This document shows, in pieces, positions 1,625 through 48,914 of a stretch of DNA of 64,000 nt (positions within the stretch are counted from its first letter, which is position 1; every line of letters begins with the position of its first letter). Source of the stretch: a virus (taxonomy: Duplodnaviria > Heunggongvirae > Uroviricota > Caudoviricetes); IMG/VR virus record IMGVR_UViG_3300031998_000001, positions 173,064 to 237,063 of that record. One strand, 5' to 3'. The notes beneath the pieces were generated by a model. It saw only the letters and a program-made list of their open reading frames with translations, had not been told where the DNA came from and did not search any database. The position numbers and the translations under genes are program-made.

Positions 1625-2887
1625 ATGACTACGGAAGAATACAGGAAATTGAGGGCTGACCTCACGACAAGAGTCCCATACGGGTTAAGATTTGAATATG
1701 ACCGTATGATATGGGAGATGTATGGAATACAGACGCATTGCGTAAGGCTCACAAGGTTTAGCGCGGACAAGGGAAATATGTTCGTGTCCGTCCCGTTCGA
1801 GGAGGCGTTACCGTACCTCCGTTCGCTCGAAGATATGACCGAAGCGGAGAAGTTGAAACTCAAGAGACAGCACGAGAAGGACGAGAAACTGTTTACCGAT
1901 GCAATTATGCGTTCAAGGAACGGGGATGATTCGCTTCGCGGAAAGGTAATAACCCACTATGCTTCGGACTGGTGCGACAGAAGATTGTTCGACCACAGGG
2001 GCTTGATTGAGATGGGGCTTGCCGTAAGAGCACCGCAAGGCTTTTATGACGACTTGTTCGGTTTCGAGGACATATCAGCGACCGCTTGGCTTGACAAGGT
2101 AATGCCGAGCGAGGAGGCGTTGAAATACCTGAAGGCGCACCACTCCCCTTCGGAAGTAAGCGACTTTCAGGCGGCTATGAACATTGCCGTAATGAAGGCG
2201 TATGACGCTGGCAGGGAGAGCGTGAAAAACTCCAGCGATGTCGCCTGCGCGTGCGCCACGAGCAGTCCCGTCGTAAACGAACGACCGAAATTTGAGGTTG
2301 GCGATGTGATGAGAACTTTGCAGGAGGCTGCCGATAATATTACAAGCGGTCTGCCCGTAGTCGTACACATAGGCAAAAAACATTATCACTGCACCAACGA
2401 ATTGATTGCTATTAAAAATCAAGATGATTACGAATATCCGCCAATGAACAGAAGGCAGAAGTCCGATGCTAATCCTGAACCAAAGTTCAAGGCTGGTGTT
2501 TGGGTGCAAATTGAAAATGGCAATACGATAAAAATTTTAGAGGTAAATGAAAATACTTATAAAATACTAAATTGTTACGGTTCTGAAGATATTAGAAGCA
2601 TATCTGACATAGATTGTATATCTCACCTTTGGACTATCGAAGATGCCAAAGATGGCGATGTGCTGGTTTTTGACGGTATCATAATGATTTTTAAAAGCAT
2701 TAAAACTGCCAGTAGTGCAAATACATATATTCTATATTATAATCGAATATTATTTGACGACTGGTGTGATTTCGGGCATAATGCCCATCCAGCCACCAAA
2801 GAACAGCGTGACTTCTTATTTCAGAAGATGCACGAAGTTGGTTATGGGTGGTGTGCAGAAACCAAACAACTAATTAAATTTGTATAA
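1625..2887 (+). CDS. LPYG/PYLR/HFDYRG family protein with long AT-rich C-terminal extension
   Basis: DLTTRVPYGL...LPYLRSLEDMTEAE...LFDHRGLIEMGLAVRAPQGFY, followed by unrelated modules (PKFEVGD, HLWTIEDAKDGDVL). Confidence 0.75.
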   Translation: MTTEEYRKLRADLTTRVPYGLRFEYDRMIWEMYGIQTHCVRLTRFSADKGNMFVSVPFEEALPYLRSLEDMTEAEKLKLKRQHEKDEKLFTDAIMRSRNGDDSLRGKVITHYASDWCDRRLFDHRGLIEMGLAVRAPQGFYDDLFGFEDISATAWLDKVMPSEEALKYLKAHHSPSEVSDFQAAMNIAVMKAYDAGRESVKNSSDVACACATSSPVVNERPKFEVGDVMRTLQEAADNITSGLPVVVHIGKKHYHCTNELIAIKNQDDYEYPPMNRRQKSDANPEPKFKAGVWVQIENGNTIKILEVNENTYKILNCYGSEDIRSISDIDCISHLWTIEDAKDGDVLVFDGIIMIFKSIKTASSANTYILYYNRILFDDWCDFGHNAHPATKEQRDFLFQKMHEVGYGWCAETKQLIKFV

Positions 2888-3044
2888 TATGGAAAAGTTA
2901 GTAAAGGTAAAATACTGCAAGACAGACGAGGAAGTCTGCCAGTTCCTGTCGGAGCAAGCCAAGGAATACAACTTGAATGTCGTTATGCACTGGTTGGTTC
3001 CTTATGAGGACGGAATAAAGGTTTTCTATCAAACATTTTGAAAT

Positions 3045-3512
3045 ATGACACAAGAAGAAAAACAACTGTTATGGAAAGACCTTTGTGCAAGGCTGCCGTA
3101 TAGAGTTCGGTGCAAATGTGTAAACGGCTTGGACGGCAGTAAAACAGACCACGGTGTCTTGAAATATATTGGAAATTGCAATGGGATTATCAGCAATTAC
3201 TATGAAGATATACCGATTGATTCGGGGCTTGTTAATAATATGTTTTACCCTGTTGAAAACATAAAGCCCCACCTCCGTTCAATGTCAACTATGACGGAAA
3301 GCGAGATGGAGGAACTCCGAGAACTATGCGGAGGCATTGTCTGGAAGAAGGACATACTGCACGATGAGGTGCTCGACATCTATTACAGGCACGATGCGCT
3401 TGACTGGCTGTTGAAGCATCATTTCGATACTCGCGGTCTGATTGGAATGGGGCTTGCGCTTGAAGCCCCAGAGGGAATGTACGATGAAATGTTAAACATA
3501 CAAAAACTATAA
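3045..3512 (+). CDS. LPYG/PYLR/HFDYRG family protein
   Basis: DLCARLPYRV...IKPHLRSMSTMTESE...HHFDTRGLIGMGLALEAPEGMY. Confidence 0.8.
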   Translation: MTQEEKQLLWKDLCARLPYRVRCKCVNGLDGSKTDHGVLKYIGNCNGIISNYYEDIPIDSGLVNNMFYPVENIKPHLRSMSTMTESEMEELRELCGGIVWKKDILHDEVLDIYYRHDALDWLLKHHFDTRGLIGMGLALEAPEGMYDEMLNIQKL

Positions 3513-3515
3513 CTT

Positions 3516-4187
3516 ATGAGCCACGACGAAAAATTTTTATTGTTCGAGGACTTGTGTATGCGCCTCCCGTACGGGGTGATGTGCAGCGTACCGTTCGACA
3601 AGAACATTATGGAACTCCACGCGATAAGGGGGAATGGGATACCGCTGTGCAACACCCTGCTTACATTCGACACTACGAATGTTGTGTGCGAGTGCTACCT
3701 CTCGGAAGTGAAGCCGTACCTCCGCCCGATGGAGAGTATGACCGCAATCGAGGATATGGAGTATTGCGAAATCAAGGGCAAGGACGAGGTTGAGCAGATG
3801 ACGCTTGAAATGAAGTACCTGCTCTCCCATCACTTCGACATAAACGGGCTTATACCGAAGGGTCTTGCGCTGGAAACCCCGAACGGAATGTACCCCGACC
3901 AGTTGAGTTTCGAGGTAAGGGACACGGAGGGCTTTACCGAAGGACTTGTAGGTATTGACAGGTTAGACCGCATAATCGAGTTGCTGCGTAGCGTCAACAA
4001 GGTTACGGAGAAGCAGATTGCGGAACTCGAATATATGTTCAAGCGTGGTCTGGCTGACGAGTTCGGAGTAAAGGGCAAGGAACTTGAGGAGAAGAAGAAG
4101 GCTCTCGAAGACGGCAAGGCTGACCTCGAATATCTGCTCGCAAGGCGGGAGGCGTATGTGCTGCGCAGGCAGAAGCGAAACGAATAG
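3516..4187 (+). CDS. LPYG/PYLR/HFDYRG family protein with C-terminal coiled-coil extension
   Basis: DLCMRLPYGV...VKPYLRPMESMT...HHFDINGLIPKGLALETPNGMY plus about 95 extra residues. Confidence 0.8.
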   Translation: MSHDEKFLLFEDLCMRLPYGVMCSVPFDKNIMELHAIRGNGIPLCNTLLTFDTTNVVCECYLSEVKPYLRPMESMTAIEDMEYCEIKGKDEVEQMTLEMKYLLSHHFDINGLIPKGLALETPNGMYPDQLSFEVRDTEGFTEGLVGIDRLDRIIELLRSVNKVTEKQIAELEYMFKRGLADEFGVKGKELEEKKKALEDGKADLEYLLARREAYVLRRQKRNE

Positions 4188-4192
4188 GAGGA

Positions 4193-4606: not shown

Positions 4607-4610
4607 CGAT

Positions 4611-5854: not shown

Positions 5855-5857
5855 GAA

Positions 5858-6619: not shown

Positions 6620-6653
6620 AGGTTTGAATAGACAACCGAAAAACCAAAGCGAT

Positions 6654-7898
6654 ATGGAACTAAAGAACAAGACAGGCAATGTGGCGAAGATATACGCCAA
6701 GACGATAGAGCAGGCGTGCATCGACCAGTTGAAGTCATTGATTGACAACCCAGCATACGAGAACGAAACCGTGCGCGTAATGCCCGACACCCACGCTGGC
6801 AAGGGAAGCGTAATCGGCTTCACATCGACATATTCGGACAAGATGGTGCCTAATACCGTAGGCGTGGACTTGAGTTGTGGAATGCTCTGCGTCAATCTCG
6901 GCAAGGTCGATATTGACCTCGAAGCATTTGATAATCTCGTACGGCTCAAAATCCCTTCGGGGATGGCTGTCCGCGAGGGCAAGGCGGTTGACTTCAAGCA
7001 ACTCGAAAAGTTGAAGTGTTACCGTGAATTGAAGGATACAAGGCGCATACTGCGGAGCATAGGTACGCTCGGCGGGGGCAACCACTTCATTGAACTCGAC
7101 AGGAGCGAGAGCGGGGACATCTATCTCGTAATACATACTGGCTCGCGCAACTTGGGCAAGCAGGTCTGCGACCACTACCAGAAGATTGCGGTTGACCTAT
7201 GCCACGGAAAGGAGAAACTCTATGAGGAACGCGAACGCATAATCCGAGAGTACAAGCGGCAGGGGCGCAAGAATGAAATCCAGAAGGCTCTGCGGGGGCT
7301 GAAGTGCGAGGCTACGGAGTGCAGGATACCAGACGACCAGTGCTACCTCTACGGGCAGTTTATGTCGGACTACCTGCACGATGTTACAATCTGCGCCGAG
7401 TTCGCGCACCTGAACAGGCTTACAATAGCCGACATCATAGTGTCCAAGTATTTCAAGGGCAAGTCGCTGAAGGACTTCGAGTGGTTCGAGACGCTCCACA
7501 ACTATGTGGATACGAAGCACGGGCTTATCCGAAAGGGCGCAATCTCCGCTATGGAGGGGGAGAAGGTCATCATCCCGATGAATATGCGCGACGGAAGCCT
7601 TATCTGCATAGGCAAGGGCAACGAGGACTGGAACTGTTCCGCGCCTCACGGGGCTGGACGGCTTATGTCACGCTCGAAGGCGAAGGACGAGATTGCACTT
7701 GAAGACTTCGAGAAAAGTATGGAAGGCATATACACGACCTCCGTGTGCCGTGGCACGATAGACGAGTCACCTATGGCGTACAAGCCTATGGACGAGATAC
7801 TCTCGGCAATCGGGGACACTGCGGAAGTCGTGGAGATAATCAAGCCGATTTACAACTTCAAGGCTGCGGAGACGCTCCCTTGGCAAAAGGACAAGTAG
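6654..7898 (+). CDS. rtcB: RtcB family RNA ligase
   Basis: MPDTHAGKG, VGVDLSCGM, GTLGGGNHFIE, HTGSRNLG, HNY, SAPHGAGR, DESPMAYK; start moved to gatATG 6654 downstream of the promoter. Confidence 0.95.
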   Translation: MELKNKTGNVAKIYAKTIEQACIDQLKSLIDNPAYENETVRVMPDTHAGKGSVIGFTSTYSDKMVPNTVGVDLSCGMLCVNLGKVDIDLEAFDNLVRLKIPSGMAVREGKAVDFKQLEKLKCYRELKDTRRILRSIGTLGGGNHFIELDRSESGDIYLVIHTGSRNLGKQVCDHYQKIAVDLCHGKEKLYEERERIIREYKRQGRKNEIQKALRGLKCEATECRIPDDQCYLYGQFMSDYLHDVTICAEFAHLNRLTIADIIVSKYFKGKSLKDFEWFETLHNYVDTKHGLIRKGAISAMEGEKVIIPMNMRDGSLICIGKGNEDWNCSAPHGAGRLMSRSKAKDEIALEDFEKSMEGIYTTSVCRGTIDESPMAYKPMDEILSAIGDTAEVVEIIKPIYNFKAAETLPWQKDK

Positions 7899-13250: not shown

Positions 13251-13283
13251 AAGTGCGAGTTCGGCAAGGCTCGCACTTTTTTC
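13251..13283 (+). terminator. intrinsic terminator abutting the next promoter
   Basis: aagtgcgag / ctcgcactt stem, T-run continuing into CTGAAA. Confidence 0.75.
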
Positions 13284-13311
13284 TGAAATTATTATTTATT
13301 AACTATATATT
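13283..13311 (+). promoter_or_regulatory. CTGAAA-N17-TATATT promoter (copy 4)
   Basis: Strict motif upstream of 13345. Confidence 0.8.
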
Positions 13312-13344: not shown

Positions 13345-14172
13345 ATGGAAATGAAACGATACTACATCCACACTGCGCTGTACGAAACCGATGTGTTCGA
13401 GTACCCAGACGACAAGACCGCTTGGAACGACTTGCGCAAGGCATTGCCCCACAAGTTCGGAACACTGTTCAGGGAAGAACCTGTTGTCGTAAAGATAAAC
13501 AACGCCGAAGAATACATACGCACATACAACGCGAAGTGCCCCAAGTATGACAACTCGAAGCCTTTCGACTTCACATACTTCCGCCCCGTTATGTTCGGGA
13601 TAACCGACGACGAGTACAACCCGTCAACGAAGGAGGAGTATGACGAAACGATGAAGATGTACGACAACAACGAGGACAACCACGCCCTTGCAATGATGTT
13701 ACGGGACAGCCTCCCGTACGGGCTGAAATGCAAGGTGACGATAGGCGACCTGACCGTCATCGAGACGCTTGATGCCGTCCGCATCGACGAGAAGCACAAC
13801 CCTGCGGTAGGACACAGGTACTTCCACACGACTGGCGAGGACGGTGTTGGCACTTGGAGCGGGTTCGGGATAAGACCGTACCTGCGGGGGATGGACACCC
13901 TCACCGACGAGGAGCGCGAGGAGTTGTATCAAAACAACAACGGCGACGCATCGTGCGAATGGTTTGCGAAAAAGCACATCGACTGGTGCAACCTCATCGG
14001 AAAGGGCTTGGCTCTGCCCGCCCCAGAGGGAATGTACGGCGAGCCAGACACCAAGGACGCGGACTGGAGGTATTATCCAAAGGACAGGTTCTCGTCCTAT
14101 GAGGAATACGCACGCTACCTTAAATGCGAAGGTCTGGCGGCGGATGCACCCGAAGGAAAGTGTAACAATTAA
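13345..14172 (+). CDS. LPYG/PYLR/HFDYRG family protein with N-terminal extension
   Basis: DSLPYGLKCKV...IRPYLRGMDTLTDEE...KHIDWCNLIGKGLALPAPEGMY. Confidence 0.75.
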   Translation: MEMKRYYIHTALYETDVFEYPDDKTAWNDLRKALPHKFGTLFREEPVVVKINNAEEYIRTYNAKCPKYDNSKPFDFTYFRPVMFGITDDEYNPSTKEEYDETMKMYDNNEDNHALAMMLRDSLPYGLKCKVTIGDLTVIETLDAVRIDEKHNPAVGHRYFHTTGEDGVGTWSGFGIRPYLRGMDTLTDEEREELYQNNNGDASCEWFAKKHIDWCNLIGKGLALPAPEGMYGEPDTKDADWRYYPKDRFSSYEEYARYLKCEGLAADAPEGKCNN

Positions 14173-14184
14173 ATCAATAGCGAT

Positions 14185-14397
14185 ATGAGACCAGAAGAAA
14201 AACAACTTTTACTTCAAGACCTATGTGCAAGATTACCCCGTATAGATGCAGGGAACACATTCAATTCCGTGGATAGGCTTACTGCCCGCCACTTCGACTG
14301 CCGTGATTTGATTGGCATTGGAAGCATCGGAAAGCAAGAAGAAAACCAACTTTTGCTCCGAGACCTTTGTGCGAAGTTGCCGTATGGGGTGAAATAA
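14185..14397 (+). pseudogene. collapsed remnant of the LPYG family (blocks A-C-A)
   Basis: DLCARLP...DRLTARHFDCRDLIG...DLCAKLPYGVK-stop; variable regions and block B absent. Confidence 0.65.
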
Positions 14398-14444: not shown

Positions 14445-14879
14445 ATGACCGAAGAAGAAAAACGATTATTATTCCGAGACCTCGTGGCAAGGCTTCCATA
14501 TACGCCTATGGTGAACTTGCGGGGGAAGGCGGGCTATGACAGGAAACTCGTGTCGGTGCATAGGTACACCACGCGGAGTGAGTTCGAGATTGTCGTCAAC
14601 AGCGATGATGACGAGGACTATATGCCCCACAACTTCGAGATTGACATAGTTAAGCCGTACTTGCGGTCAATGTCGAGTATGACGGAGGAAGAAATGCTTG
14701 ACTTCCACGAAAATGGCGGTGCGTTAACTCACTATCTCAAATATGACATTGATTTAGATAGTTTAACAGTTTCTGCGATTGATTGGCTTAACGAACATCA
14801 TTTCGATTATCGTGGACTGATTGGTAAGGGCTTGGCGTTGGAAGCCCCAGACGGAATGTATAACGGCAAAAACGAATAA
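14445..14879 (+). CDS. LPYG/PYLR/HFDYRG family protein
   Basis: DLVARLPY...VKPYLRSMSSMTEEE...DWLNEHHFDYRGLIGKGLALEAPDGMY. Confidence 0.85.
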   Translation: MTEEEKRLLFRDLVARLPYTPMVNLRGKAGYDRKLVSVHRYTTRSEFEIVVNSDDDEDYMPHNFEIDIVKPYLRSMSSMTEEEMLDFHENGGALTHYLKYDIDLDSLTVSAIDWLNEHHFDYRGLIGKGLALEAPDGMYNGKNE

Positions 14880-17168: not shown

Positions 17169-17774
17169 ATGAATAGGGAGGAACTTGGAATACTGGCGAG
17201 GGACTTGTTCGCCCGCATACCCTTCGGGGTGATGTGCAGGGAAAGTGACGCAGAGCCAGCCGTGTACGGCAGGGTGTACGACTACAGCATATATTCGGCG
17301 ACCATAACATACGGGGACACCGACCATACCAAGCACCTGCCCGTTAACGAGTGGCTTGCTGGAGGCGGAAGGATATGCCTCCGCCCGATTGCCGATATGA
17401 CTTCGGACGAGTTGGAGTTCCTCGTGGACAACTATGTGTTCGAGAGGGGATATGCCATTGGGGACGGCAAGGATATGTTTGATGTCGGGGAGATAGAACT
17501 TCGTGATATGGCGAGGATTATCGACTTCTTTGATTCCCGACACATTGACTACCGAAACCTCATCGGCAGGGGCTTGGCGATACCCGCCCCAGAGGGGATG
17601 TACGAACTCCCTCCGCTGTGGTGCGTGTGCGAGTGTCCGAACCAGCCGAACGGGATGTCGGTAGAACCGCTTGAAGGCTTCTATGCGACGCACGGGGAAG
17701 TCTATACGAAAGGCACGAAGGCGGAGTGCAGGGAGTGGCTTGACAATTACAGGAAAACACATAAAAGAAAATAA
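17169..17774 (+). CDS. LPYG/PYLR/HFDYRG family protein with C-terminal extension
   Basis: DLFARIPFGV...ICLRPIADMTSDE...HIDYRNLIGRGLAIPAPEGMY plus about 55 aa. Confidence 0.8.
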   Translation: MNREELGILARDLFARIPFGVMCRESDAEPAVYGRVYDYSIYSATITYGDTDHTKHLPVNEWLAGGGRICLRPIADMTSDELEFLVDNYVFERGYAIGDGKDMFDVGEIELRDMARIIDFFDSRHIDYRNLIGRGLAIPAPEGMYELPPLWCVCECPNQPNGMSVEPLEGFYATHGEVYTKGTKAECREWLDNYRKTHKRK

Positions 17775-18675: not shown

Positions 18676-19041
18676 ATGACACACATAAAGAAAATAAACG
18701 AAATGATGCACAAGGATTTCAGCGAAGTTCGTTCGCTTCTGGACGGAGATGATTTTTCGGTTATTGTCGTCGAAGCCAAGGGAAACACCACATATAAGGC
18801 TGGCGACATTATTGAAACGGTTTATGAATTTGTTTACGACTGCAAGGAAATGACTGAAACCTGCAACGGCACTGCCGAAATTTCTGGTGATGACGATTTG
18901 GCTTATAATATGTGTATAACCGACGAAAACGATAATGTGTACGCAAGCATTATGTTCAGGCTTGTGTTCTTTGACCCAGAATCCGTAGCAACGATTCAGG
19001 ATTTTTACGATAGCGTGGAGTCGGACGATAATCCGTTTTAG
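18676..19041 (+). CDS. HIKRINE-tagged acidic protein (candidate internal virion protein)
   Basis: Starts MTHIKKINEM; late promoter upstream. Confidence 0.65.
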   Translation: MTHIKKINEMMHKDFSEVRSLLDGDDFSVIVVEAKGNTTYKAGDIIETVYEFVYDCKEMTETCNGTAEISGDDDLAYNMCITDENDNVYASIMFRLVFFDPESVATIQDFYDSVESDDNPF

Positions 19042-21653: not shown

Positions 21654-21719
21654 AACTTGACAACGCATATTGCCGTATGGACAACGCAAAACATAAAAAT
21701 ATAAATAATATGTGGACGC

Positions 21720-21820
21720 AAGTGCAGATGTGTCCGAAAGCAATTATAAAGACATTTGGAGGATTCCATCCGCAAAGGCTCTCTGCACTTTATGCCGAGC
21801 GGACAGTCCTCCGCTTTTTA
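21720..21820 (+). ncRNA. structured 5' leader RNA with terminator-like hairpin (unassigned)
   Basis: 9-bp stem aagtgcaga/tctgcactt, inner gtgtc/gacat stem, agcgga/tccgct hairpin plus U-tract, alternative pairings. Confidence 0.5.
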
Positions 21821-21829
21821 TTGGACGAA

Positions 21830-31561: not shown

Positions 31562-32011
31562 ATGGCGAAGATATTGAAAATTGACGAGATGCGCGGCACT
31601 GGGAAGTTCTGGATAACGGACTACTTCGACCTGAACGCCATACCGAAAGATGTACTTGCTTCAAAGTGCGTTGACTTCTCCTTTATGGCGAAAAACCAAG
31701 GCTACGGCAAGGAGATATTCGTGAACGGCGACGAGATACTCGCGGAGAAGAAATACTTTACCGCCACATACGAAACCGTGAAGGAAACGCTCCGAGCAAA
31801 GTACAAGTTCGATGACTGGCAGTTTGCGGAGGACAGCGTGGCTAACAATGTCAGGATAATAATATTGTTCGTTGACATCAAGCGCAACAAGGACATAATG
31901 CTTGCGGAAATGAAGTCGCTCGGCTGGAGCGAATCGTTCAGCGATGAAACCGTATATCAGGGCTTCCGCGTAGTGGCGATAAGTTTTTCACCTGTATCTG
32001 AAAATAAATAA
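31562..32011 (+). CDS. protein with tag-like N-terminus, paired with PRTase
   Basis: Starts MAKILKIDEM. Confidence 0.55.
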   Translation: MAKILKIDEMRGTGKFWITDYFDLNAIPKDVLASKCVDFSFMAKNQGYGKEIFVNGDEILAEKKYFTATYETVKETLRAKYKFDDWQFAEDSVANNVRIIILFVDIKRNKDIMLAEMKSLGWSESFSDETVYQGFRVVAISFSPVSENK

Positions 32012-32026
32012 GTTTTCCAATATATT
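31998..32026 (+). promoter_or_regulatory. CTGAAA-N17-TATATT promoter (copy 8)
   Basis: Strict motif upstream of 32048; the spacer contains AATAAATAAGTT, one mismatch from the late promoter. Confidence 0.7.
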
Positions 32027-32938: not shown

Positions 32939-33032
32939 AATAAATTATGACCCGAAACAGTATTAAACCGTTTAAAAGCATTGCAAGAATCAAATTTATA
33001 AATAATATGTGGTTGTATATACACAACGGACT

Positions 33033-34424: not shown

Positions 34425-34888
34425 TATGAATGATAGAAAGCAACATTTGAGTTACTCATTGGACATAGTGAAGGCAAGGGACGGGCGAGTGATGTTCGAC
34501 CTTGTGAACGATGCGTGCGACACGCACAACATATTCTACGGGGACAAACTCGTTGAAAGCACGAAGGAGTGGAACATAAGGTACAATGGCGTTGAGAACA
34601 ACAACGACCCTGAATACGAGTTCGTGGATATGACATCCCCAGAAGCACCGAATATGACTACGGAGGAATGGGACATATTGCGCCTACATTACCGCAGGCT
34701 TCTCTGTGGCGATGACTGGACGGACGATGAAATCACGGGTGCAAAGATACGCCTTGCCGTAGGTATGGCAAAACGCTTCAAGATGCCTCTCGACTTCGCC
34801 TTCGGGATACTTACCGACAAGGAGAGGGCTGTGTACGAGGCGAACAAGGAGATGTATGACAAGTGCGAACCGTTAAATGTATAGCAGG

Positions 34889-35314
34889 ATGAGCGAAAAG
34901 GACAGGCAAGAGGTTATCAGGGAACTGCTGTCCCGAATACAATACGGGGTGGTATTCAAGGTGGACGAGAATGTCGAGGGCTGGGAGAAGGGCAATATCC
35001 CAGTCGAAGGCGTGGAGAACGGTGTCGGGAACATCGGCGGACGCAATGTGGAAGCCCTGCTCGGCGCGTTCGAGCGCGGGGACATAGACATAAGGCTGTA
35101 CCTGCGCCCGATGGACGATACGGCGGATGCGTGGATGAACCAGATGCGCCACATAGTTGAATATGACAACGCGCACGGGGGCGGACGCGAAATGACCGAC
35201 CTGTTCCTGCCGAAGTTGACGGAGTTCATTTTCGGCAACCACTACGACACGAACGATATGATTGGGCGCGGGCTTGCGCTGCCCGCCCCAGAGGGAATGT
35301 ATAACGAGCAATAA
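34889..35314 (+). CDS. LPYG family protein, array gene 1
   Basis: ELLSRIQYGV...LYLRPMDD...HYDTNDMIGRGLALPAPEGMY. Confidence 0.8.
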   Translation: MSEKDRQEVIRELLSRIQYGVVFKVDENVEGWEKGNIPVEGVENGVGNIGGRNVEALLGAFERGDIDIRLYLRPMDDTADAWMNQMRHIVEYDNAHGGGREMTDLFLPKLTEFIFGNHYDTNDMIGRGLALPAPEGMYNEQ

Positions 35315-35322: not shown

Positions 35323-35763
35323 ATGGCAAGGGAAGAAAAACAACTACTACTGATTGACATTTGTGCAAGGTTGCCGTATGGGGTAATGTGTAATGTGTTC
35401 AATGGCAAATATGATGAAGATATGAAATTATCTCCGTCACTTTTGAGTTGGGATATAAATGATATTAAGCCCTACCTCCGTCCGCTGAATACGATAACAG
35501 ATACAGAGGTCAGTCGCGCAATAGGCATAATCACGGGCGGAGTTTCAAGATGGAGCGAAAGGGATAAACGCTGGTACTACATTGTTCACGACCCAAGCAT
35601 CGGGGAGATAGAGAGCGACTTCGACTTGGACTATTTCGCGCACGGCTACTACGGCATAGACAATATGGATTTCCTTAACTCGCACCACTTCGACTACCGC
35701 GGTCTTATCGAGAAGGGGCTGGCGTTGCCTGCGCCCGAAGGGATGTACGAACCAGAAAAATAA
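35323..35763 (+). CDS. LPYG family protein, array gene 2
   Basis: DICARLPYGV...IKPYLRPL...HHFDYRGLIEKGLALPAPEGMY. Confidence 0.85.
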   Translation: MAREEKQLLLIDICARLPYGVMCNVFNGKYDEDMKLSPSLLSWDINDIKPYLRPLNTITDTEVSRAIGIITGGVSRWSERDKRWYYIVHDPSIGEIESDFDLDYFAHGYYGIDNMDFLNSHHFDYRGLIEKGLALPAPEGMYEPEK

Positions 35764-37424: not shown

Positions 37425-37621
37425 GGTCGATACTATGCTCGGCAAGGTCAAGTGTGGCGAGCGGGACTACAGGAACGCACGGGAGGCATTCGATATGTGC
37501 TGGGCGTTGAAGCGCGACGGATATTCGGAAAAGGAGTTGCAGGGCTACTTCGACAACTTCCTGTACGGCTACCTCGTGGCGATGAAGATTTCAAGAAGTT
37601 CATATCAAAACTGTTAGGGAT

Positions 37622-38035
37622 ATGGCAAGCAAGAAGGGCACAATGACGCAGGAAGAGCAGAACCTTCTCATAGACGATATGCTCCCGCGCATAAGGCGTT
37701 CAAAGTTGCTCGCACGGAACAACAGGGACGGGCATCTTCTCCGTATATGCGGGATAGGTTCGTTCGGCGCGATGGTGTTCGCCCGCGACACGGACTACTA
37801 TTACACCGATGTTACGGTGGATTTGACCGACATAACGGTTTACCTTCGTTCGATGTCAACTATGACGGAAGCGGAAGAAGATGAGTATAACGCGCTCAAC
37901 GGCTATGAAAGGGGAGTGTTTCCATCCACCGTGGATGCGTTCGACTGGCTCTTGGAACACCGCTTCGACTATCGCGGTCTTATCGGCAGGGGCTTGGCGG
38001 AGGAAGAGCCAAGCGGGATTGCGGACGATGTTTAG
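37622..38035 (+). CDS. LPYG family protein (divergent block A), array gene 5
   Basis: VYLRSMSTMTEAE...DWLLEHRFDYRGLIGRGLA. Confidence 0.8.
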   Translation: MASKKGTMTQEEQNLLIDDMLPRIRRSKLLARNNRDGHLLRICGIGSFGAMVFARDTDYYYTDVTVDLTDITVYLRSMSTMTEAEEDEYNALNGYERGVFPSTVDAFDWLLEHRFDYRGLIGRGLAEEEPSGIADDV

Positions 38036-38043: not shown

Positions 38044-38072
38044 CTGAAATCGTTATATATTTCCAATATATT
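38044..38072 (+). promoter_or_regulatory. CTGAAA-N17-TATATT promoter (copy 9), internal to the array
   Basis: Strict motif upstream of ATG 38097. Confidence 0.8.
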
Positions 38073-38096: not shown

Positions 38097-38492
38097 ATGA
38101 CGGAAGAACAGAAGAAAATATTGTTGAAAGACCTGTCGGCAAGAGTGCCGTACCGCCCGAAGTTCATAACATACGCACTAACCTATGACAAGGGGGTTAA
38201 TGTGGCTACCGATATTGTGCGGGGCATAGTCGATGACAGCATAGTCGGGGAGAACGGAAGTTATAGGTTGGACAAGTCTATGCTGTTCCTCCGTCCTATG
38301 TCAACTATGACAGAAGCCGAAAGGAAGGTATATGACAAATTGAGCCGTATGGATGACGAATATTCGCAGCCACACGATTCTTCCCATTTGGTTGACTGGC
38401 TCAACGAGCACCATTTCGACCACAGGGGATTGATAGGGATGGGCTTGGCGACACCCGCGCCCGAAGGGATGTATGACAACAAAAATAATTAA
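38097..38492 (+). CDS. LPYG family protein, array gene 6
   Basis: DLSARVPY...LFLRPMSTMTEAE...DWLNEHHFDHRGLIGMGLATPAPEGMY. Confidence 0.85.
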   Translation: MTEEQKKILLKDLSARVPYRPKFITYALTYDKGVNVATDIVRGIVDDSIVGENGSYRLDKSMLFLRPMSTMTEAERKVYDKLSRMDDEYSQPHDSSHLVDWLNEHHFDHRGLIGMGLATPAPEGMYDNKNN

Positions 38493-38496
38493 GGAT

Positions 38497-38919
38497 ATGA
38501 CAAGTGAAGATAGGCAATTAGTCGCGAAGGCACTCTGCGGATACCTGCCTTACGGGTTGAAGTTCAGGCAGACTGACGAATCGACCATAACATTAAAGGG
38601 GCTATGTATCGAGGGCAATATCATAACGGTCAATCCGAAAATGCAATACGGGTTTAATCTGGTCAACGAATACGGGGACTTGGAGTACAAGCCCTACCTC
38701 CGCCCAATGTCAGATATGACGGAGAAAGAAATGAGCGAATTGAGGCAATGGGGAAGTTTATGTATGTATAATGATAACACCGTACAAGACATTGGTGTAT
38801 ATGGTGCTATTCATAGTATTCCCGTCATTGACTGGCTCAACGCCCATCACTTCGATTACAGGGGCTTGATTGAAATGGGTCTGGCGTTGCCCGCACCCGA
38901 AGGAATGTATAATAATTAA
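38497..38919 (+). CDS. LPYG family protein, array gene 7
   Basis: ALCGYLPYGL...YKPYLRPMSDMTEKE...DWLNAHHFDYRGLIEMGLALPAPEGMY. Confidence 0.85.
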   Translation: MTSEDRQLVAKALCGYLPYGLKFRQTDESTITLKGLCIEGNIITVNPKMQYGFNLVNEYGDLEYKPYLRPMSDMTEKEMSELRQWGSLCMYNDNTVQDIGVYGAIHSIPVIDWLNAHHFDYRGLIEMGLALPAPEGMYNN

Positions 38920-38935
38920 AATTATAATAACGGTT

Positions 38936-39382
38936 ATGATACTAACAAAAGAACAAAAGAAACTCCTATTGGATGACCTCTGTGCGAGGTTGCCCTATGG
39001 TGTAAGGGGGACGGTGAAAACCACCGACGGCAACGGACAGGAAATCACGGATGACGGGATAATCAACAGTGCCTTCATCAATGAGCACGGCAAGGCATAC
39101 ATCTGCATTGAGAGCGCAGAGTATGAACTTGAAGATGTCAAGCCCTACCTCCGAACAATGTCAAGTATGACGGTCGAGGAAGAAGCACAAGTGCATAGGT
39201 TTATGGACATTGTTACGGATGAAAACTATGGCGACGGCTATTCACCATCCGCTTGGGATGCAATGAACGGTTTTGTGCAATATTGTGACTCGCATCATCT
39301 TGACCACAGGGGGCTGATATTCAGAGGGCTTGCTCTTGAAGCACCAGAAGGAATGTATAACGACCAAATGACAGCGATATGA
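38936..39382 (+). CDS. LPYG family protein, array gene 8
   Basis: DLCARLPYGV...VKPYLRTMSSMT...HHLDHRGLIFRGLALEAPEGMY. Confidence 0.85.
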   Translation: MILTKEQKKLLLDDLCARLPYGVRGTVKTTDGNGQEITDDGIINSAFINEHGKAYICIESAEYELEDVKPYLRTMSSMTVEEEAQVHRFMDIVTDENYGDGYSPSAWDAMNGFVQYCDSHHLDHRGLIFRGLALEAPEGMYNDQMTAI

Positions 39383-39753
39383 CAGAAGAAGAAAAAAGAC
39401 TTTTAATCCAAGACCTCGTGGCAAGAGTGCCGTATGGGGTAAGGGGCAAAACGCTCGGTTGCAAAACCTGTACATTGGTGTATATTGGCGTTGCTGGGGA
39501 TTTCACAGCCGACACATATCACGGATGGATAGGGCGCAAGCAGTTCGTGCCTTACCTCCGCCCGATGTCGGATATGACGGAGGACGAGTTCAAGGAATGG
39601 CACGACAGGATTAGACCGATGTATGACGGCAAGCCGTATGAGTCGGAGGGCGCGGACATCGACTTTTTCAACAAGCACCATATAGATTACCGCGACTTGA
39701 TTGGGAAGGGGTTGGCGTTGAAAGCCCCAGACGGAATGTATGACGGGCAATAA
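39379..39753 (+). CDS. LPYG family protein, array gene 9
   Basis: DLVARVPYGV...FVPYLRPMSDMTEDE...HHIDYRDLIGKGLALKAPDGMY. Confidence 0.85.
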   Translation: MTEEEKRLLIQDLVARVPYGVRGKTLGCKTCTLVYIGVAGDFTADTYHGWIGRKQFVPYLRPMSDMTEDEFKEWHDRIRPMYDGKPYESEGADIDFFNKHHIDYRDLIGKGLALKAPDGMYDGQ

Positions 39754-39761
39754 TCAAGGAT

Positions 39762-40247
39762 ATGACAAGGGAGGAAAAACAACTACTGCTTGCCGACTTA
39801 TGCGCAAGGTTGCCATACGGGGTGAAGTGCAAGGTGGAAACCTGCGCACCACCAGCAACTATCGCGAGCATAAACGATGAAGGCGGAGTGACGGTAAGGC
39901 TTGTTGACAAGAACGGAATGACACGAGGGGTAGGCTGGGACTACTTGGCTGACATAAAACCTTACCTCCGCCCAATAGATACAATGACTGGGGATGAGAG
40001 GGGTGAATTGCTGTTTCTTTTGGCAGAAGGAAGAACGAACATAGAACTTAACACCAACGGTCAACTAATAACAAAAGATGATGTTAAACTTGGATTTAAC
40101 TACCCGTTTGTATGTCCGCAAGGTAGTGGTGAATACATTGATTTTCTTAATGCCCACCATTTCGACTACAGAGGTTTGATTGAGAAGGGGCTGGCGTTGA
40201 AAGCCCCAGATGGAATGTACGATGACAAAAAACGATTAGGGTTATGA
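39762..40247 (+). CDS. LPYG family protein, array gene 10
   Basis: DLCARLPYGV...IKPYLRPIDTMT...HHFDYRGLIEKGLALKAPDGMY. Confidence 0.85.
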   Translation: MTREEKQLLLADLCARLPYGVKCKVETCAPPATIASINDEGGVTVRLVDKNGMTRGVGWDYLADIKPYLRPIDTMTGDERGELLFLLAEGRTNIELNTNGQLITKDDVKLGFNYPFVCPQGSGEYIDFLNAHHFDYRGLIEKGLALKAPDGMYDDKKRLGL

Positions 40248-40606
40248 CAACGGAAGAAAGACAGTTACTGCTTGCCGACTTATGCGCAAGGCTACCATAC
40301 GGGGTGAACATAAATTTGGATGAAGAATATAATGCACGCTTGACGGGCATAGACGAAGACGGCAACCTGACCGCCGACATCCCCGCCGATTTTGCTTTCA
40401 GCATTGACGAAATTAAGCCTTACCTCCGTCCTATGGAGAGTATGACGGATGAAGAAGGTAAGGAATATAATATCTTATTGACTACTGGTCAATGCTTTAA
40501 GTTGGTTGATTATCTAAATAGGAAAATGTTCGACTATCGCGGGCTTATACCAATGGGCTTGGCACTGCCCACCCCAGACGGAATGTATAACGGACAAAAC
40601 AATTAA
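40244..40606 (+). CDS. LPYG family protein, array gene 11
   Basis: DLCARLPYGV...IKPYLRPMESMTDEE...MFDYRGLIPMGLALPTPDGMY. Confidence 0.85.
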   Translation: MTTEERQLLLADLCARLPYGVNINLDEEYNARLTGIDEDGNLTADIPADFAFSIDEIKPYLRPMESMTDEEGKEYNILLTTGQCFKLVDYLNRKMFDYRGLIPMGLALPTPDGMYNGQNN

Positions 40607-40610
40607 GATT

Positions 40611-41009
40611 ATGACGAAAAAACAGAAACAACTGCTTGTAAAGGCACTCTGCGGATATTTGCCGTATGGCTTGAAGATATGCAAGGTGAAGCCGTCGTTC
40701 CTGAAGGAAGATGGCTTGCACATACAGGACGCACAGGGGATAGACCTTGTGCTGACGATAGTGCTCACCAACACATTCGCCCGCGTGGAAGATATGAAGC
40801 CGTACTTGCGACCGATGTCAAGTATGACCGAGAAGGAAAGGGCGAAATACCTTAAAGCCTGCGACAAGGAAACGGATGATGCGCTGGCGCAGCCGAGATA
40901 CAGCGGGGTTGACTGGCTTAACGAACACCATTTCGATTACCGTGGATTGATTGGAATGGGGCTTGCGCTGGAGGCGGAAGAAGGAATGTATGACAACAAA
41001 AACGAATAA
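40611..41009 (+). CDS. LPYG family protein, array gene 12
   Basis: ALCGYLPYGL...MKPYLRPMSSMTEKE...DWLNEHHFDYRGLIGMGLALEAEEGMY. Confidence 0.85.
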   Translation: MTKKQKQLLVKALCGYLPYGLKICKVKPSFLKEDGLHIQDAQGIDLVLTIVLTNTFARVEDMKPYLRPMSSMTEKERAKYLKACDKETDDALAQPRYSGVDWLNEHHFDYRGLIGMGLALEAEEGMYDNKNE

Positions 41010-41472
41010 GTATGCCGAGATACTACAAGTATGACATTGACGACCTGAAGGAACTGCACGAGGCTTGCAGGACTGTCGGGGGGCTGAACAAATGGGTTGA
41101 CGGACACTACCGCTACACCTGCTCGTGCTGCGGCAAGGACGAGTTGTACCACCAGTCGCCAGTATTGGGCAACGAGATGTGGAAGGGGGTGTGCAGGACG
41201 CTCGGACTCGAATACCCGAACGGGAAGCACCCGAACAACATAGGCAGGACTTACCGCCTTCCCCGTGACAAGGACGGGCAGGCTGCCGTCAGGTTCTACC
41301 GATTCTTCGACGAGATAGGCAGGGTGTGGGGCGATGACACATACACTATGCTCTGCCGCGGGTGCGTGGAGAAGGCACTTGGCAGACCGCTGGTGAAAGC
41401 CGACCTGCCCGACTGCGGGCTTAACAGGATGCACATTGACGAATATGGAGATTAGGATACCGATAATATTTC

Positions 41473-44778: not shown

Positions 44779-45174
44779 ATGACAGAGGAGGAAAAGACAT
44801 TGCTCATCAAGGTACTGGCGGAGCAGTCGCCATACGGATTGAAGGTAAGGAAAGCCAATACCAACAGGAGAACGGTAAGGGGCGTTGATGCCATTGCGGG
44901 CATCGTCCACTTCGAGAACGACACGATAAGTCCGTTTGGTCTTGACATAGAGCATCCGCTTACATTCAGGCAGCAGGTCAAGCCGTACTTGCGCCCTATG
45001 TCGAGTATGACTGAAAGCGAGGAGGGTGAATACAATTCGCTGAACGGCTACGAAAGGGGAGTGTTTCCGTCCAGTGCGGATGCGTTGGACTGGCTGAACG
45101 CCCACCACTTTGACTGGCGCGGTCTAATTCAGAAAGGCTTGGCTGCCGAGGCGGAAGAAGGGATGTATAACTAA
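44779..45174 (+). CDS. LPYG family protein
   Basis: EQSPYGLKV...VKPYLRPMSSMTESE...DWLNAHHFDWRGLIQKGLAAEAEEGMY. Confidence 0.85.
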   Translation: MTEEEKTLLIKVLAEQSPYGLKVRKANTNRRTVRGVDAIAGIVHFENDTISPFGLDIEHPLTFRQQVKPYLRPMSSMTESEEGEYNSLNGYERGVFPSSADALDWLNAHHFDWRGLIQKGLAAEAEEGMYN

Positions 45175-45591: not shown

Positions 45592-45609
45592 CTAAAAATT
45601 TCACATAAT

Positions 45610-46869
45610 ATGAAACAAGTAAGAATAATTGATTTTTTAAGGAACTGCCCAGTATATACGAGGCTCTACAGTCCGTTGTACGGATACTGCGAGTTTTTGG
45701 AGTGCTCGCGGAACTTTATCTTCGTAAGGGGTTCAAAGCCAGACTCGAAGCACAACAAATGCGGTGACACTGTGTATAAGTTCAACGAAATCGGACAGCC
45801 AGCGGGAACTGTGTACGAGGACAACGAGATTGAATATTCGGAATGTATGCTGTTTCCGTCCCACACATACAAGAGTTGGAAGAACTGGCAGGAGCATTTG
45901 TTCAAGGACGGGGACATAATAGTCGAGAACACGGCGGACGAGGAGAACAGGAATATGTTCAAGTACAAGCACTTTGATGTTTGTTACGGCTACAACGGCA
46001 TTCCGTTTGTAGTCCCGCCAAGCGAATTGAAAAAATACCGCTATGCCACAAAGGAAGAACAGATACGGTTCAGGGAATTGCAGGAAAAGTTCGAGAAGGA
46101 CAATAGTGACACAAAGAAACAACTTGACCTTAAAGAAACCGTTGAGATTACCAATAATATCATAAAGAAGCAGGCGAAAACTTGGGGCAGGCTGCACCCA
46201 GCATACGCGCTTGCCGAAAATATGGGGCTATTGGACGATGACGACATATTGGAAGATATGTACGAGAAGCACAGGACGGATACATTCCGCGTGGTGTGCG
46301 AATTATTCTGCTGTGACCCGAAGGAAGTCCTGCGGAAGATGTTGGAGCATCGCAACGAGGTGATGCCGAAGATTATGGAGGCGGAGAAAAGGAGCATCGC
46401 GGAAGCCAACGCCAAAGTCCCAGACAAGATGTTCCACGCAGACGACATCATAATTGACAGGACGCTTGGAACAGGCTATCTTCATCTGCTCAAGGTGAAA
46501 GGCTATGACAGCGCAGGAAAATACTGGGTTTGCTTTGATTCCGATGGTACTTACTATGCCCTTACACAGGACGAGATAAACAAGTATGAGTACGCCACGG
46601 AACAGGAGATGGCGGACTTCAAGGAGTTGCAGGAAAAATTCGAGAAGGAAAATGAAAAGAAAACAACCGACTACAGCAAGTTCTACTACATAGAGAACAC
46701 GGTGGACGAATCCGACACCGAGATAACAGTGTACTGCAAGACTATGGAAGAAGCATTGGAACGAATCAAGACCTGTCGTGACTGGTACGGCGAGATGGGT
46801 ACTGGACGAATCTATGAGGTGAAGTTCGGCAAAAGCCCAATAGGAAAATTAGTATATAGCAAGGAATAG
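45610..46869 (+). CDS. mosaic protein with an internally duplicated domain
   Basis: FKDGDII...YRYATKEEQIRFRELQEKFEKDN repeated as FHADDII...YEYATEQEMADFKELQEKFEKEN. Confidence 0.7.
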   Translation: MKQVRIIDFLRNCPVYTRLYSPLYGYCEFLECSRNFIFVRGSKPDSKHNKCGDTVYKFNEIGQPAGTVYEDNEIEYSECMLFPSHTYKSWKNWQEHLFKDGDIIVENTADEENRNMFKYKHFDVCYGYNGIPFVVPPSELKKYRYATKEEQIRFRELQEKFEKDNSDTKKQLDLKETVEITNNIIKKQAKTWGRLHPAYALAENMGLLDDDDILEDMYEKHRTDTFRVVCELFCCDPKEVLRKMLEHRNEVMPKIMEAEKRSIAEANAKVPDKMFHADDIIIDRTLGTGYLHLLKVKGYDSAGKYWVCFDSDGTYYALTQDEINKYEYATEQEMADFKELQEKFEKENEKKTTDYSKFYYIENTVDESDTEITVYCKTMEEALERIKTCRDWYGEMGTGRIYEVKFGKSPIGKLVYSKE

Positions 46870-46894
46870 GTTTAACAACAAACATTTTAAGATT

Positions 46895-47449: not shown

Positions 47450-47623
47450 TATGCCAATGGACGAAGTTTTAAGGGATGCGAAGAAATGCCCGTACTACGG
47501 GTGCGCAGGGACAAGGGTATGCACATACTACTCTTGGACTACACATTGCCCCTATCCCGACTGCAATAAGGGGGAATGGAACGGCTACACGGCTTATGAG
47601 AACAATGTGAACGGAAAATAGTT

Positions 47624-48091
47624 ATGACCAATACATTAAAAAAGAAGATACTGTTCCTCGACATTGACGGTGTGCTCGCTGGGGAGGACTACCTTCGCGA
47701 CAGGGCGAACGGCGGGGACTTCATCGACCCCGAAAAGGTGAAGTTGCTCAACTCGCTTCATTGTATGGTGGTCATTTCGTCCTCGTGGGGCGATGACAAC
47801 GGACGGACGGAAAAGATGCTCAAGGAAAGGGGGCTTATGCTCCCGATTGTCGGCTACACCGTGCATTACGAGATAGGTCACGACTGGATTGTGCGTGGCA
47901 ACTCCATCGCCAAGTGGCTCACCGACAACCTTCACGGCTGCATAGGCGAGTACCAGTACGCCATAGTGGACGATGACGACGATATGCTTATGCGTCAGGC
48001 TGGGCATTTCGTACAGACCAACCCGTACACGGGCATAACGGAGAGTGATATTGAGAAGTTAAGGAACATACTTGAATCCAATATAATATAG
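47624..48091 (+). CDS. HAD-family phosphatase (RNA-repair associated type)
   Basis: ILFLDIDGVL, VVISSSW, AIVDDDDD. Confidence 0.8.
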   Translation: MTNTLKKKILFLDIDGVLAGEDYLRDRANGGDFIDPEKVKLLNSLHCMVVISSSWGDDNGRTEKMLKERGLMLPIVGYTVHYEIGHDWIVRGNSIAKWLTDNLHGCIGEYQYAIVDDDDDMLMRQAGHFVQTNPYTGITESDIEKLRNILESNII

Positions 48092-48275
48092 TTATGGCAA
48101 GGGAAAAGCAATTTATCGAAACTTGCAGGCACTGCGGACGCATCGCGACGCTCGGTGCAAGGTGGTGCAGGAACGGATACGAGCAGTATCTGTATGAATG
48201 TGGTAAAAAATGTCCGGGCTACGAGCCTGTGGGCGAAGTTGAAATAACGACAACGGAAATAAAGGAGGAAACAAT

Positions 48276-48914
48276 ATGACGGAGTTCAACAGGGGCGACA
48301 TAATTGCAAGTCCGAAAGGTGAGAAATACAGTGTGGAAGGCATTGGCAAGGTCTGCGGGTCAAGGCTGCTTGCGGACGGAAGGGAAGTTCCCGATGTGAA
48401 AGCCAACTGCTACACGGTCAAGACGGACAACGGTTGCGGGTACTGCTTCCTGTCTATGAAGGATGCGGAGAACTACAAGTTCGTAGAAGTCGGTGAGTGG
48501 CGTAGGAAGGAGTTGCTCGGAACGGACTTGACGGGAAGGCTTATGTACGGGGTGAAACTCTATGTCGGCGAAGGCAAGCCAGCCGAACTGCTCGAACACA
48601 TAGATACAAGGTCGTTCATCGTGAACGGGCATATCCCGCTCGATGAGGTCAAGCCGTACCTGCGCACAATGAATATCCATAACTTCACGGAGGAGGAAAC
48701 TATGCAGGTGCAGTCAATTTCGGACAGCATTTGCTTTAACGGCTCTATCGCCGAATACGGGGACAACTTCCATATCTCCATTTCGGACATCGCCCGCTAC
48801 ATCGACTTCCTCAACGCACACCACTTCGACTGGCACGGGCTTATCGAAAGGGGGCTTGCATTGGAGGCGGACAAGGACACATACGCCAATACTACAATGA
48901 AAGGGGCATACTGA
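48276..48914 (+). CDS. LPYG family protein with N-terminal extension
   Basis: DLTGRLMYGV...VKPYLRTM...FLNAHHFDWHGLIERGLALEAD. Confidence 0.8.
   Translation: MTEFNRGDIIASPKGEKYSVEGIGKVCGSRLLADGREVPDVKANCYTVKTDNGCGYCFLSMKDAENYKFVEVGEWRRKELLGTDLTGRLMYGVKLYVGEGKPAELLEHIDTRSFIVNGHIPLDEVKPYLRTMNIHNFTEEETMQVQSISDSICFNGSIAEYGDNFHISISDIARYIDFLNAHHFDWHGLIERGLALEADKDTYANTTMKGAY

Follow-up and report, generated by a model that had tools for sequence, protein, structure and literature searches.

A phage-only family of small proteins with three conserved blocks and two exchanged modules in a huge T4-like phage

Introduction

Hundreds of the genes in huge phages still defy interpretation. One family of such genes is concentrated in a 64,000-nucleotide stretch of a Caudoviricetes virus (positions 173,064 to 237,063 of IMG/VR record IMGVR_UViG_3300031998_000001; hereafter the window), where it comprises 23 ORFs that share three short blocks (A, B and C) and differ almost completely between them. 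The family makes up about one in twenty (~5%) of this phage's genes and reaches 45 copies in a relative with a 413-kb genome. What do these proteins have in common, how do they come to differ, and what could a phage gain from so many of them? The preliminary description of the locus proposed a scaffold with two variable loops that is under diversifying pressure and expressed early. Here, we followed up this proposal computationally.

Results

The family and its members

We searched all ORFs of the window with an iterated HMM started from ORF 39762-40247 and recovered 23 members with E-values of 4e-16 to 1e-73, all on the plus strand; the three-block layout originally reported for them held up. 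The accompanying estimate of about 25 domain copies was slightly high, as the window contains 23 full domains, two of them in a single ORF, and one 70-aa remnant; 22 of the 23 ORFs are intact. Four additional family ORFs lie outside the window in the 387,654-bp record of this T4-like phage, giving a genome total of 27 and making this its largest paralog family. The opening MT-x-EE-K, in this form or as a variant, is common to all family genes, and a typical member has ~130 residues (120 aa at minimum). For five listed ORFs the likely start lies downstream of the listed one, on the basis of the usual MT..E start, of where the preceding gene ends or of a promoter; specifically, 38097 was preferred over 37881 because of a promoter-like module at 38044. 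The family genes of the window are as follows.

1625..2887, plus strand: 420 aa; the domain (residues 1-145) is followed by a 275-aa C-terminal extension bearing KFxVGD-type small-barrel motifs
3045..3512, plus strand: 155 aa
3516..4187, plus strand: 223 aa; domain at residues 1-131, then a 92-aa charged helical tail
13345..14172, plus strand: 275 aa; 105-aa N-terminal extension before the domain; directly behind the promoter-like module at 13283
14185..14397, plus strand: 70-aa remnant with block A, part of block C and block A again
14445..14879, plus strand: 144 aa
16162..16563, plus strand: likely start 16162, not 16048 where the ORF opens
17169..17774, plus strand: 201 aa; domain and a 55-aa Cys-rich tail
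34877..35314, plus strand: 145 aa, divergent; opens the 6-kb array
35323..35763, plus strand: 146 aa
35771..36265, plus strand: 164 aa
36270..37424, plus strand: tandem two-domain gene; likely start 36270, not 36237 where the ORF opens
37622..38035, plus strand: 137 aa; B-C module 79% identical to that of gene 44779
38097..38492, plus strand: 131 aa; likely start 38097, not 37881 as listed; A-B module replaced in the near-identical contig L042
38497..38919, plus strand: likely start 38497, not 38473 where the ORF opens; missing from contig L042
38936..39382, plus strand: likely start 38936, not the TTG at 38870 where the ORF opens
39379..39753, plus strand: 124 aa; missing from contig L042
39762..40247, plus strand: 161 aa; AlphaFold model 1
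40244..40606, plus strand: 120 aa, the smallest; AlphaFold model 2; missing from contig L042
40611..41009, plus strand: 132 aa; query of the homodimer prediction
44779..45174, plus strand: 131 aa
46895..47449, plus strand: 184 aa; long B-C insert
48276..48914, plus strand: 212 aa; 75-aa N-terminal extension before the domain

Alignment of the genome's 27 domains revealed the constant frame and two variable segments that had been described, with mean pairwise identities of 42%, 49% and 58% in blocks A, B and C, respectively, against 11.5% in the A-B interval (27-65 residues long) and 8.3% in the B-C interval (11-56 residues). Across 136 diverse members, conservation reaches 90% or more at ~37 frame residues, several of which are polar (R16, R67, H107, D109 and R111). 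The proteins are acidic, with a median pI of 5.1 as compared to 6.3 for the genome's other small proteins (p = 0.005); the median net charge of the domains is -7, and the variable barrel segment is their most negative part (mean -3.2). No hydrophobic segment was found in the family proteins. Soluble, acidic proteins of this kind fit binders better than nucleic-acid or membrane proteins.

Distribution and database relatives

The family is confined to phages and comprises 8,591 clusters at 50% identity. Larger genomes have more copies: 1-4 matches are present in complete phages of 100-170 kb, in keeping with the initial expectation of one or a few copies, whereas that expectation does not extend to other huge phages, which have 15, 17 and 45. 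DUF6794 and a YdcK-type β-solenoid occur as fusion partners, and neither hints at a function. Among catalogued families, members matched only PHROG phrog_10841, which has no annotated function; 12 of the 23 window domains match it at E <= 0.001 (best E 8.9e-12), and the alignments that we inspected cover ~30 residues of block C only (profile positions about 129-158 of 163). Pfam searches with eight members and with extension pieces of four gave nothing above noise, the family profile had no match below E 0.2 among PDB sequences, tblastn of two window members against 50,697 GenBank phage records returned nothing credible, and a full-text literature search found no description of the family. A distant homologue, P0179, approached PF25693 (T4 Dda.1, Y01A) at E 5.8e-5 and 24 bits, where the cut-off is 27. 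However, hhalign of the family against T4 Dda.1 gave a probability of 0.2% and no window member matches PF25693 (E <= 1), and we treat the two as unrelated.

Predicted fold and homodimer

AlphaFold models of ORF 39762-40247 (model 1, pLDDT 84.6) and ORF 40244-40606 (model 2, pLDDT 93.5) share one architecture, despite their unrelated A-B sequences. In both models, block A is predicted to form the N-terminal helix and strand 1, the A-B interval strands 2-4 of an SH3-like β-barrel, block B the last barrel strand and the start of helix 2, and block C helix 3 and a C-terminal wrap, with the B-C interval as an insert of variable length. DSSP assigns five strands to model 1; in model 2 it finds four and, in addition, a single bridge residue. 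The blocks make up the frame of the fold in both models. The A-B interval had been mistaken for a loop, as it supplies three of the predicted barrel strands. Structural alignment places the barrel part on Tudor, KOW, CPH and SAWADEE barrels over 50-58 residues with rmsd values of 1.9-2.6 Å and Z scores of 4.0-4.6, which are below the clear level and in the range where chance arrangements are common. A five-stranded barrel, predicted for the A-B region together with the flanks of blocks A and B, superposes to this extent on small barrels of the SH3-like class (Tudor, KOW, CPH, SAWADEE, PWWP and YodC/DUF2158), but these have no sequence similarity to the family and no counterpart of its conserved N-terminal helix, helices 2 and 3, or C-terminal wrap. 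Full-length structural matches were to uncharacterised viral proteins only (TM 0.81-0.88). Foldseek searches of the PDB, Swiss-Prot models and BFVD, and VIA-align searches with both models against 48,161 chains, yielded nothing beyond generic small barrels and uncharacterised phage proteins. Neither a solved structure nor a named family suggested a function in the Pfam, PDB sequence and fold searches. For the C-terminal 271 residues of ORF 1625 (residues 150-420), the ESM Atlas gave nothing reliable (best score 0.80).

Blocks A and C are also predicted to form a symmetric dimer interface. The homodimer prediction for gene 40611-41009 gave an ipSAE of 0.54, as compared to 0.00 for the best of three controls, with a calibration in which the homodimer mark was reached by 20 of 30 one-chain-pair structures and by 1 of 23 single-chain structures. 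Contacts overlap by at least 52% among the three runs, and the partner pLDDT is at least 69. The predicted interface residues (7-18, 94-103 and 110-111) lie within blocks A and C. Tandem two-domain proteins recur in the family.

Module exchange and selection

The two intervals vary independently of each other, as 14 domain pairs share the A-B but not the B-C interval, 21 share the B-C but not the A-B interval, and only 6 share both. Contig L042 has another A-B module in one gene, exchanged precisely from block A to block B, and lacks three family genes; for two of these genes, the breakpoints fall in block C / block A junction repeats. The remnant ORF 14185-14397 fits the same block-junction recombination and appears to be a recombination scar. 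Diversifying pressure, which the preliminary description had inferred, left no sign: in six close ortholog pairs, a sample in which recombination blurs true orthology, dN/dS ranged from 0.08 to 0.30 in the blocks and from 0.15 to 0.45 in the intervals, and the lowest values, in blocks B and C (0.08-0.09), indicate the strongest purifying selection. On a tree, the paralogs interleave with those of other phages (25 label changes, as compared to 24.8 with shuffled labels). The paralogs are old subfamilies common to other phages rather than a recent burst in this genome, and their diversity arises at the conserved blocks, where modules are swapped and genes gained or lost, rather than by fast point change. 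A diversity-generating retroelement was considered and rejected, as the genome has no reverse transcriptase, judged by the lack of any RVT_1 match, and the variable segments differ wholly in sequence and length, not at single sites.

Promoters and neighbouring genes

Promoter-like CTGAAA-N17-TATATT modules are located upstream of the family genes, in the same orientation.

1004..1032, plus strand: module ahead of genes 1084, 1625, 3045 and 3516
13283..13311, plus strand: module directly ahead of family gene 13345
31998..32026, plus strand: nearest module upstream of the array starting at 34877
38044..38072, plus strand: module within the array, ahead of genes 38097 to 41455

Such modules also stand immediately upstream of RtcB and of the ORF that precedes the clamp loader. 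The TATAAATA late promoter precedes the capsid and portal genes, and the 78 genes with TATAAATA upstream include no family member. Judged by promoter motifs, a non-late expression class is plausible for the family, because CTGAAA-N17-TATATT modules and not late promoters precede its genes; to that extent, the early timing originally proposed is supported. The neighbouring genes are replication and RNA-repair genes (among them RtcB, RlaP and an RNA-repair HAD domain) rather than structural ones. A head-targeting tag of the M-x-H-I-K/R-x-I-N-E type is absent from all family genes, and no toxin domain was present among 30 neighbouring proteins scanned.

Discussion

To account for these findings, we tentatively favor, at somewhat short of even chances for the whole, an explanation in which a shuffled, phage-only family builds a repertoire of protein binders on the block frame. 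Pairing through blocks A and C would let each particle display a pair of variable barrels and a pair of inserts. At the DNA level, the conserved blocks double as crossover points: homologous recombination there swaps the two modules independently, within and between phages, and also adds or deletes whole genes, while each module stays under purifying selection. The binders would be made before the late genes, and their targets may be host proteins or proteins of rival elements, with host take-over or counter-defence as the outcome; binding of diverse host proteins is our best guess at the role.

A precedent for such turnover is found in the internal-protein (ip) loci and hyperplastic regions of T-even phages, where accessory genes of T4-like phages are gained, lost and swapped via short shared sequences. 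The family resembles these loci in the recombination-driven turnover of accessory genes between close relatives. However, in the family these shared sequences lie within the coding region, as three blocks; it swaps modules within proteins as well as whole genes, and its proteins have neither a head-targeting tag nor a late promoter. The clear mode of evolution, in which two modules are exchanged at three fixed blocks, makes this family, which exceeds 8,500 sequence clusters and lacks a Pfam name, a tractable entry point; a confident predicted fold and a testable dimer model are now available for it. If the targets are host defence or take-over proteins, the family would constitute a large natural library of specific binders and a new example of phage tools diversified by cassette exchange.

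Polymorphic-toxin immunity arrays (SUKH, Imm) are rows of diverged small paralogs that are presumed to be specific protein binders and turn over rapidly. The family could likewise neutralise toxins or effectors of rival phages, satellites or bacterial competitors in superinfection or inter-element conflict, which we consider unlikely though worth serious thought. Its tandem arrays of diverged, small, acidic paralogs, its fast gain and loss between near-identical phages and its module shuffling recall those arrays, and the sole non-family ORF within the array (37411-37617) weakly matches Pfam Imm6. However, that match is below the cut-off (E 0.003), none of the eight members tested against Pfam matched Imm or SUKH, homology to these families was not detected, no toxin gene was seen beside the arrays, and the family is found only in phages. 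Mechanistically, immunity of this sort would be a special case of specific binding rather than a true alternative to it.

The polar frame residues could instead form a shared site of enzymes or cofactor binders, with the modules choosing substrates. Conservation of the frame across the 136 members, charged residues included, is unusually high and exceeds the strict need of a passive scaffold, such that a shared partner or a catalytic site could be responsible; purifying selection is also strongest in blocks B and C. A catalytic role nevertheless seems improbable, as no catalytic family was matched in Pfam, PDB sequences or fold searches, the proteins are of very small size, the predicted dimer interface takes in part of the conserved set, and the T/S-x-x-E motifs resemble helix caps. 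We regard as decidedly improbable that the proteins are regulators whose barrels bind RNA or DNA in the manner of KOW, Tudor, PWWP, Sm and Hfq domains, with paralogs differing in target. The best barrel neighbours do include NusG/Spt5 KOW domains, Hfq and a PWWP domain bound to ssDNA, and RNA-repair genes lie nearby, but the structural scores are those of common chance arrangements and both the domains and, above all, their variable barrel segment are negatively charged.

A largely functionless, selfish repeat family, spread by recombination and tolerated in a very large genome, would explain the gain and loss of whole genes between close relatives, the remnant and the rise of copy number with genome size; we give it very little credence, because almost every ORF is intact, all parts have dN/dS values well below 1, distinct subfamilies are kept across phages and complete 100-kb phages keep single copies. 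A role in the virion or its assembly, for example as adaptors for head-targeted cargo, would have tagged genes of the window (at 18676, 25297, 51732 and 58664) in its favor, but is scarcely credible, as the family genes have neither the tag nor the late promoter and lie apart from structural genes.

Returning to the repertoire of binders, a combinatorial form of it is conceivable, if quite unlikely: the invariant interface would pair the 27 paralogs with each other as well as with themselves, and the two independently shuffled modules of each chain would then provide a huge phage with bivalent specificities in the hundreds, directed at targets in host defence or take-over. If true, the phage would possess its own equivalent of a diversified receptor repertoire, generated by cassette exchange rather than by mutation.

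Among 185,579 prokaryote species genomes, the family matched five MAG contigs, which are probably binned phage DNA; four are labelled as Bacteroidales-lineage, and three are visibly from the rumen. The source of the window is a rumen phage with a 388-kb genome.

Census and distribution of the family

Starting from ORF 39762-40247, iterated HMM searching identified 23 plus-strand ORFs in the window (E values from 4e-16 to 1e-73) and 27 in the whole genome that encode small acidic proteins in which three conserved blocks (A, B and C) are separated by two variable intervals, or modules. An all-against-all BLAST comparison of an approximate set of 511 genes ranks it as the genome's largest paralog family, the next having nine members. 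The window's ORFs contain 23 full domains, two of them in ORF 36270-37424, and one 70-residue remnant (14185-14397) that carries, in order, block A, a partial block C and block A. Five ORF starts should be shifted downstream, to 16162, 36270, 38097, 38497 and 38936, with which the family genes are packed nearly end to end. The three blocks are visible in the alignment of the family domains as the preliminary description gave them, and its picture of a frame with modules is correct: the 27 domains of the genome have a mean pairwise identity of 42%, 49% and 58% in blocks A, B and C, as compared to 11.5% in the A-B interval (27-65 residues) and 8.3% in the B-C interval (11-56 residues).

A profile built from this alignment retrieved 8,591 cluster representatives (50% identity) at E <= 0.001, 528 of them at E <= 1e-30, from a search space of 1.84 billion proteins, and the family's ESM Atlas clusters are 80-100% viral. 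No Pfam family matched the eight members scanned, a tblastn search with two members against 50,697 GenBank phage records gave no credible match, and 12 of the 23 domains matched PHROG 10841 (function unknown) through block C only. Among 30 related IMG/VR records, complete phages of 100-170 kb hold one to four matches each, which agrees with the earlier expectation of one or a few copies per phage; that expectation fails for three huge phages, which hold 15 (361 kb), 17 (353 kb) and 45 (413 kb). An expansion of this kind thus characterizes some huge phages, this one among them.

Variation arises by exchange of stable modules

The paralogs are old subfamilies that this phage shares with others. 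When placed in a tree with domains from 12 other records (143 domains in total), the copies of this genome cluster no more than they do with labels shuffled (25 changes versus 24.8), and several branches with SH-aLRT values of 95-100 unite single copies from different phages. The diversifying pressure proposed earlier is not borne out, as positive selection was not seen in any part of the protein: in a small sample of six close ortholog pairs, all blocks and intervals are under purifying selection, with dN/dS values of 0.30 (A), 0.08 (B), 0.09 (C), 0.45 (A-B interval) and 0.15 (B-C interval). The differences within the pairs are clumped, and dS is lower in the intervals than in blocks A and C, a pattern that mosaic histories would give.

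The variation results from cassette exchange among stable modules. With a module counted as shared at 50% identity or more, a comparison of all domain pairs gives 14 that match in A-B and have unrelated B-C modules, 21 that match in B-C and have unrelated A-B modules, and only 6 that match in both. Exchange can be followed in L042, a 4.3-kb contig whose DNA is 89-99% identical to the matching parts of the window between 38.0 and 42.8 kb. In its copy of gene 38097 (family genes are named by their start coordinates) the A-B module, only 6% identical, has been swapped exactly between blocks A and B, and the B-C module is 95% identical. The contig also lacks genes 38497, 39379 and 40244, the breakpoints for 39379 and 40244 falling in overlapping repeats at the block C/spacer/block A junction, and the position of 41529 is taken by a different gene. 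Across the array, the run of family genes from 34877, the blocks form direct DNA repeats of 41-144 nt with 60-85% identity. A DGR was also considered as the mechanism and was rejected, as reverse transcriptase is absent from the genome.

Predicted fold and dimer

AlphaFold2 models were obtained for paralog 39762 (23 sequences; pLDDT 84.6, pTM 0.76) and for the minimal paralog 40244 (136 sequences; pLDDT 93.5, pTM 0.85), and both have one architecture despite their sequence-unrelated A-B segments. The modelled chain runs from a helix (residues 3-19, block A) through a small beta-barrel to helix 2, then helix 3, with which block C starts, and lastly a C-terminal stretch in extended conformation that bears short beta bridges. 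The LPYGV end of block A forms the first strand of the barrel, KPYLRP of block B its last strand, and the MT-x-EE residues of block B begin helix 2. The preliminary description asked whether blocks A, B and C make up a single core, and in the predicted structures the frame is a folded core, which probably forms dimers as well. The variable A-B segment, previously taken for a loop, instead supplies strands 2-4 of the folded barrel in both models, so that the first module is predicted to be a barrel face. Insert-like behavior is limited to the B-C interval, which is poorly modelled in 39762 and nearly missing in the 120-residue paralog 40244.

The barrel resembles Tudor, KOW, CPH and SAWADEE domains weakly, at the level of the fold (Z 4.0-4.6, rmsd 1.9-2.6 Å over 50-58 residues), and full-length structural matches were to uncharacterised viral proteins only. 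The extensions of family genes 1625 (2060-2887) and 48276 (48276-48500) contain KFxVGD/GDII-type motifs resembling extra small SH3-like barrels; by these motifs, additional barrels may be fused to some members.

When paralog 40611 was modelled as a homodimer (136-row alignment), the ipSAE was 0.54 and the best of three controls scored 0.00, with at least 52% of contacts common to the three runs and a partner pLDDT of at least 69. In calibration, 20 of 30 proteins solved as same-chain pairs and 1 of 23 solved as single chains attained this mark. Memory of a known structure is an unlikely cause of the result, since no solved complex is similar to the predicted dimer. Residues 7-18 in the block A helix and residues 94-103 and 110-111, where block C starts, form the predicted interface together with a few from the barrel, and the interface is symmetric. 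The majority of its positions hardly vary within the family, and pairing between different paralogs is therefore conceivable. Two-domain tandem proteins, which are to be expected if two domains normally pair, are found repeatedly in this phage and in others.

Genome context and promoters

The source record is a 387,654-bp IMG/VR virus, estimated to be 93% complete, of which the window covers bases 173,064-237,063. The phage is T4-like, with a capsid gene of the Gp23 type and a portal gene of the T4 type; it also has genes for a gp44-type clamp loader, RtcB, RlaP, an RNA-repair HAD domain, a C5 DNA methylase and a TnpB element. Rumen metagenomes are the source of its relatives, and most of the few MAG contigs with family members bear a Bacteroidales-lineage label.

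Features of the window (window coordinates)
6654-7898: RtcB ligase, lying among the family genes
24210-25265: RlaP-type nucleotidyltransferase, lying among the family genes
47624-48091: 'Swiss Army Knife' RNA-repair HAD domain, lying among the family genes
21677-23077: TnpB/IS605 OrfB gene (Pfam HTH_OrfB_IS605, OrfB_IS605, Cas12f1-like TNB domain)
1004, 6591, 9560, 13283, 19848, 25882, 30046, 31998, 38044, 41473, 49212, 53464: promoter modules, by motif
18640, 25266, 51701, 57224, 58633: TATAAATA late-type promoters; the following genes open with M-x-H-I-K/R-x-I-N-E

The promoter modules, each about 55 nt, consist of TTTTCTGAAA-N17-TATATTAG followed by a conserved GGAA-rich leader. The window contains 12 of them and the genome 54, of which 47 are on the plus strand and 7 on the minus strand. 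Copies lie directly upstream of RtcB, of the ORF preceding the clamp loader and of two family genes, 13345 and 38097; each of the remaining family genes has such a module further upstream on its own strand. The usual Bacteroidota promoter consensus is TTTG ... TAnnTTTG, of which there are no sites; the module matches neither this consensus nor the phage's own T4-type late motif, TATAAATA. The late motif precedes 78 genes, including those for capsid and portal, and many of these genes start with the head-tag-like M-x-H-I-K/R-x-I-N-E. No family gene is among the 78 and, as the family genes lie downstream of the other modules, they are likely of the non-late class, which upholds part of the proposal that these promoters drive early expression; the motifs do not separate early from middle.

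Possible function

The family proteins have no hydrophobic segment and are more acidic than the genome's other small proteins (median pI 5.1 versus 6.3, p = 0.005), with most of the negative charge in the barrel segment. A repertoire of specific protein binders serving host take-over or counter-defence would be consistent with their acidity, the absence of catalytic and nucleic-acid-binding signatures, their accessory, fast-turnover behavior and their non-late promoters; we give this reading slightly less than even weight. The polar frame residues are strongly conserved, which may instead reflect a shared partner or an enzyme-like site.

Several neighbors of the family genes are also of note. 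ORF 33033-34424 (region 33009-34424) has the same upstream sequence, TATAAATAATATGTGG, as the TnpB gene at 21677-23077; it has no Pfam match and, on the strength of the shared sequence, may be a second, diverged TnpB-like element just upstream of the main array. A gene at 45610-46869 (genome 218673-219932), likewise with no Pfam match, sits between family genes 44779 and 46895 and belongs to the nine-member paralog family, the second largest of the genome. A DUF4241 protein (1084-1623, E 2.6e-8) is encoded directly upstream of family gene 1625, behind promoter module 1004. The region 29029-30036 encodes a fusion of a BspA-type leucine-rich-repeat protein with DUF7666, a surface-protein-like domain that is unusual in a phage early region.
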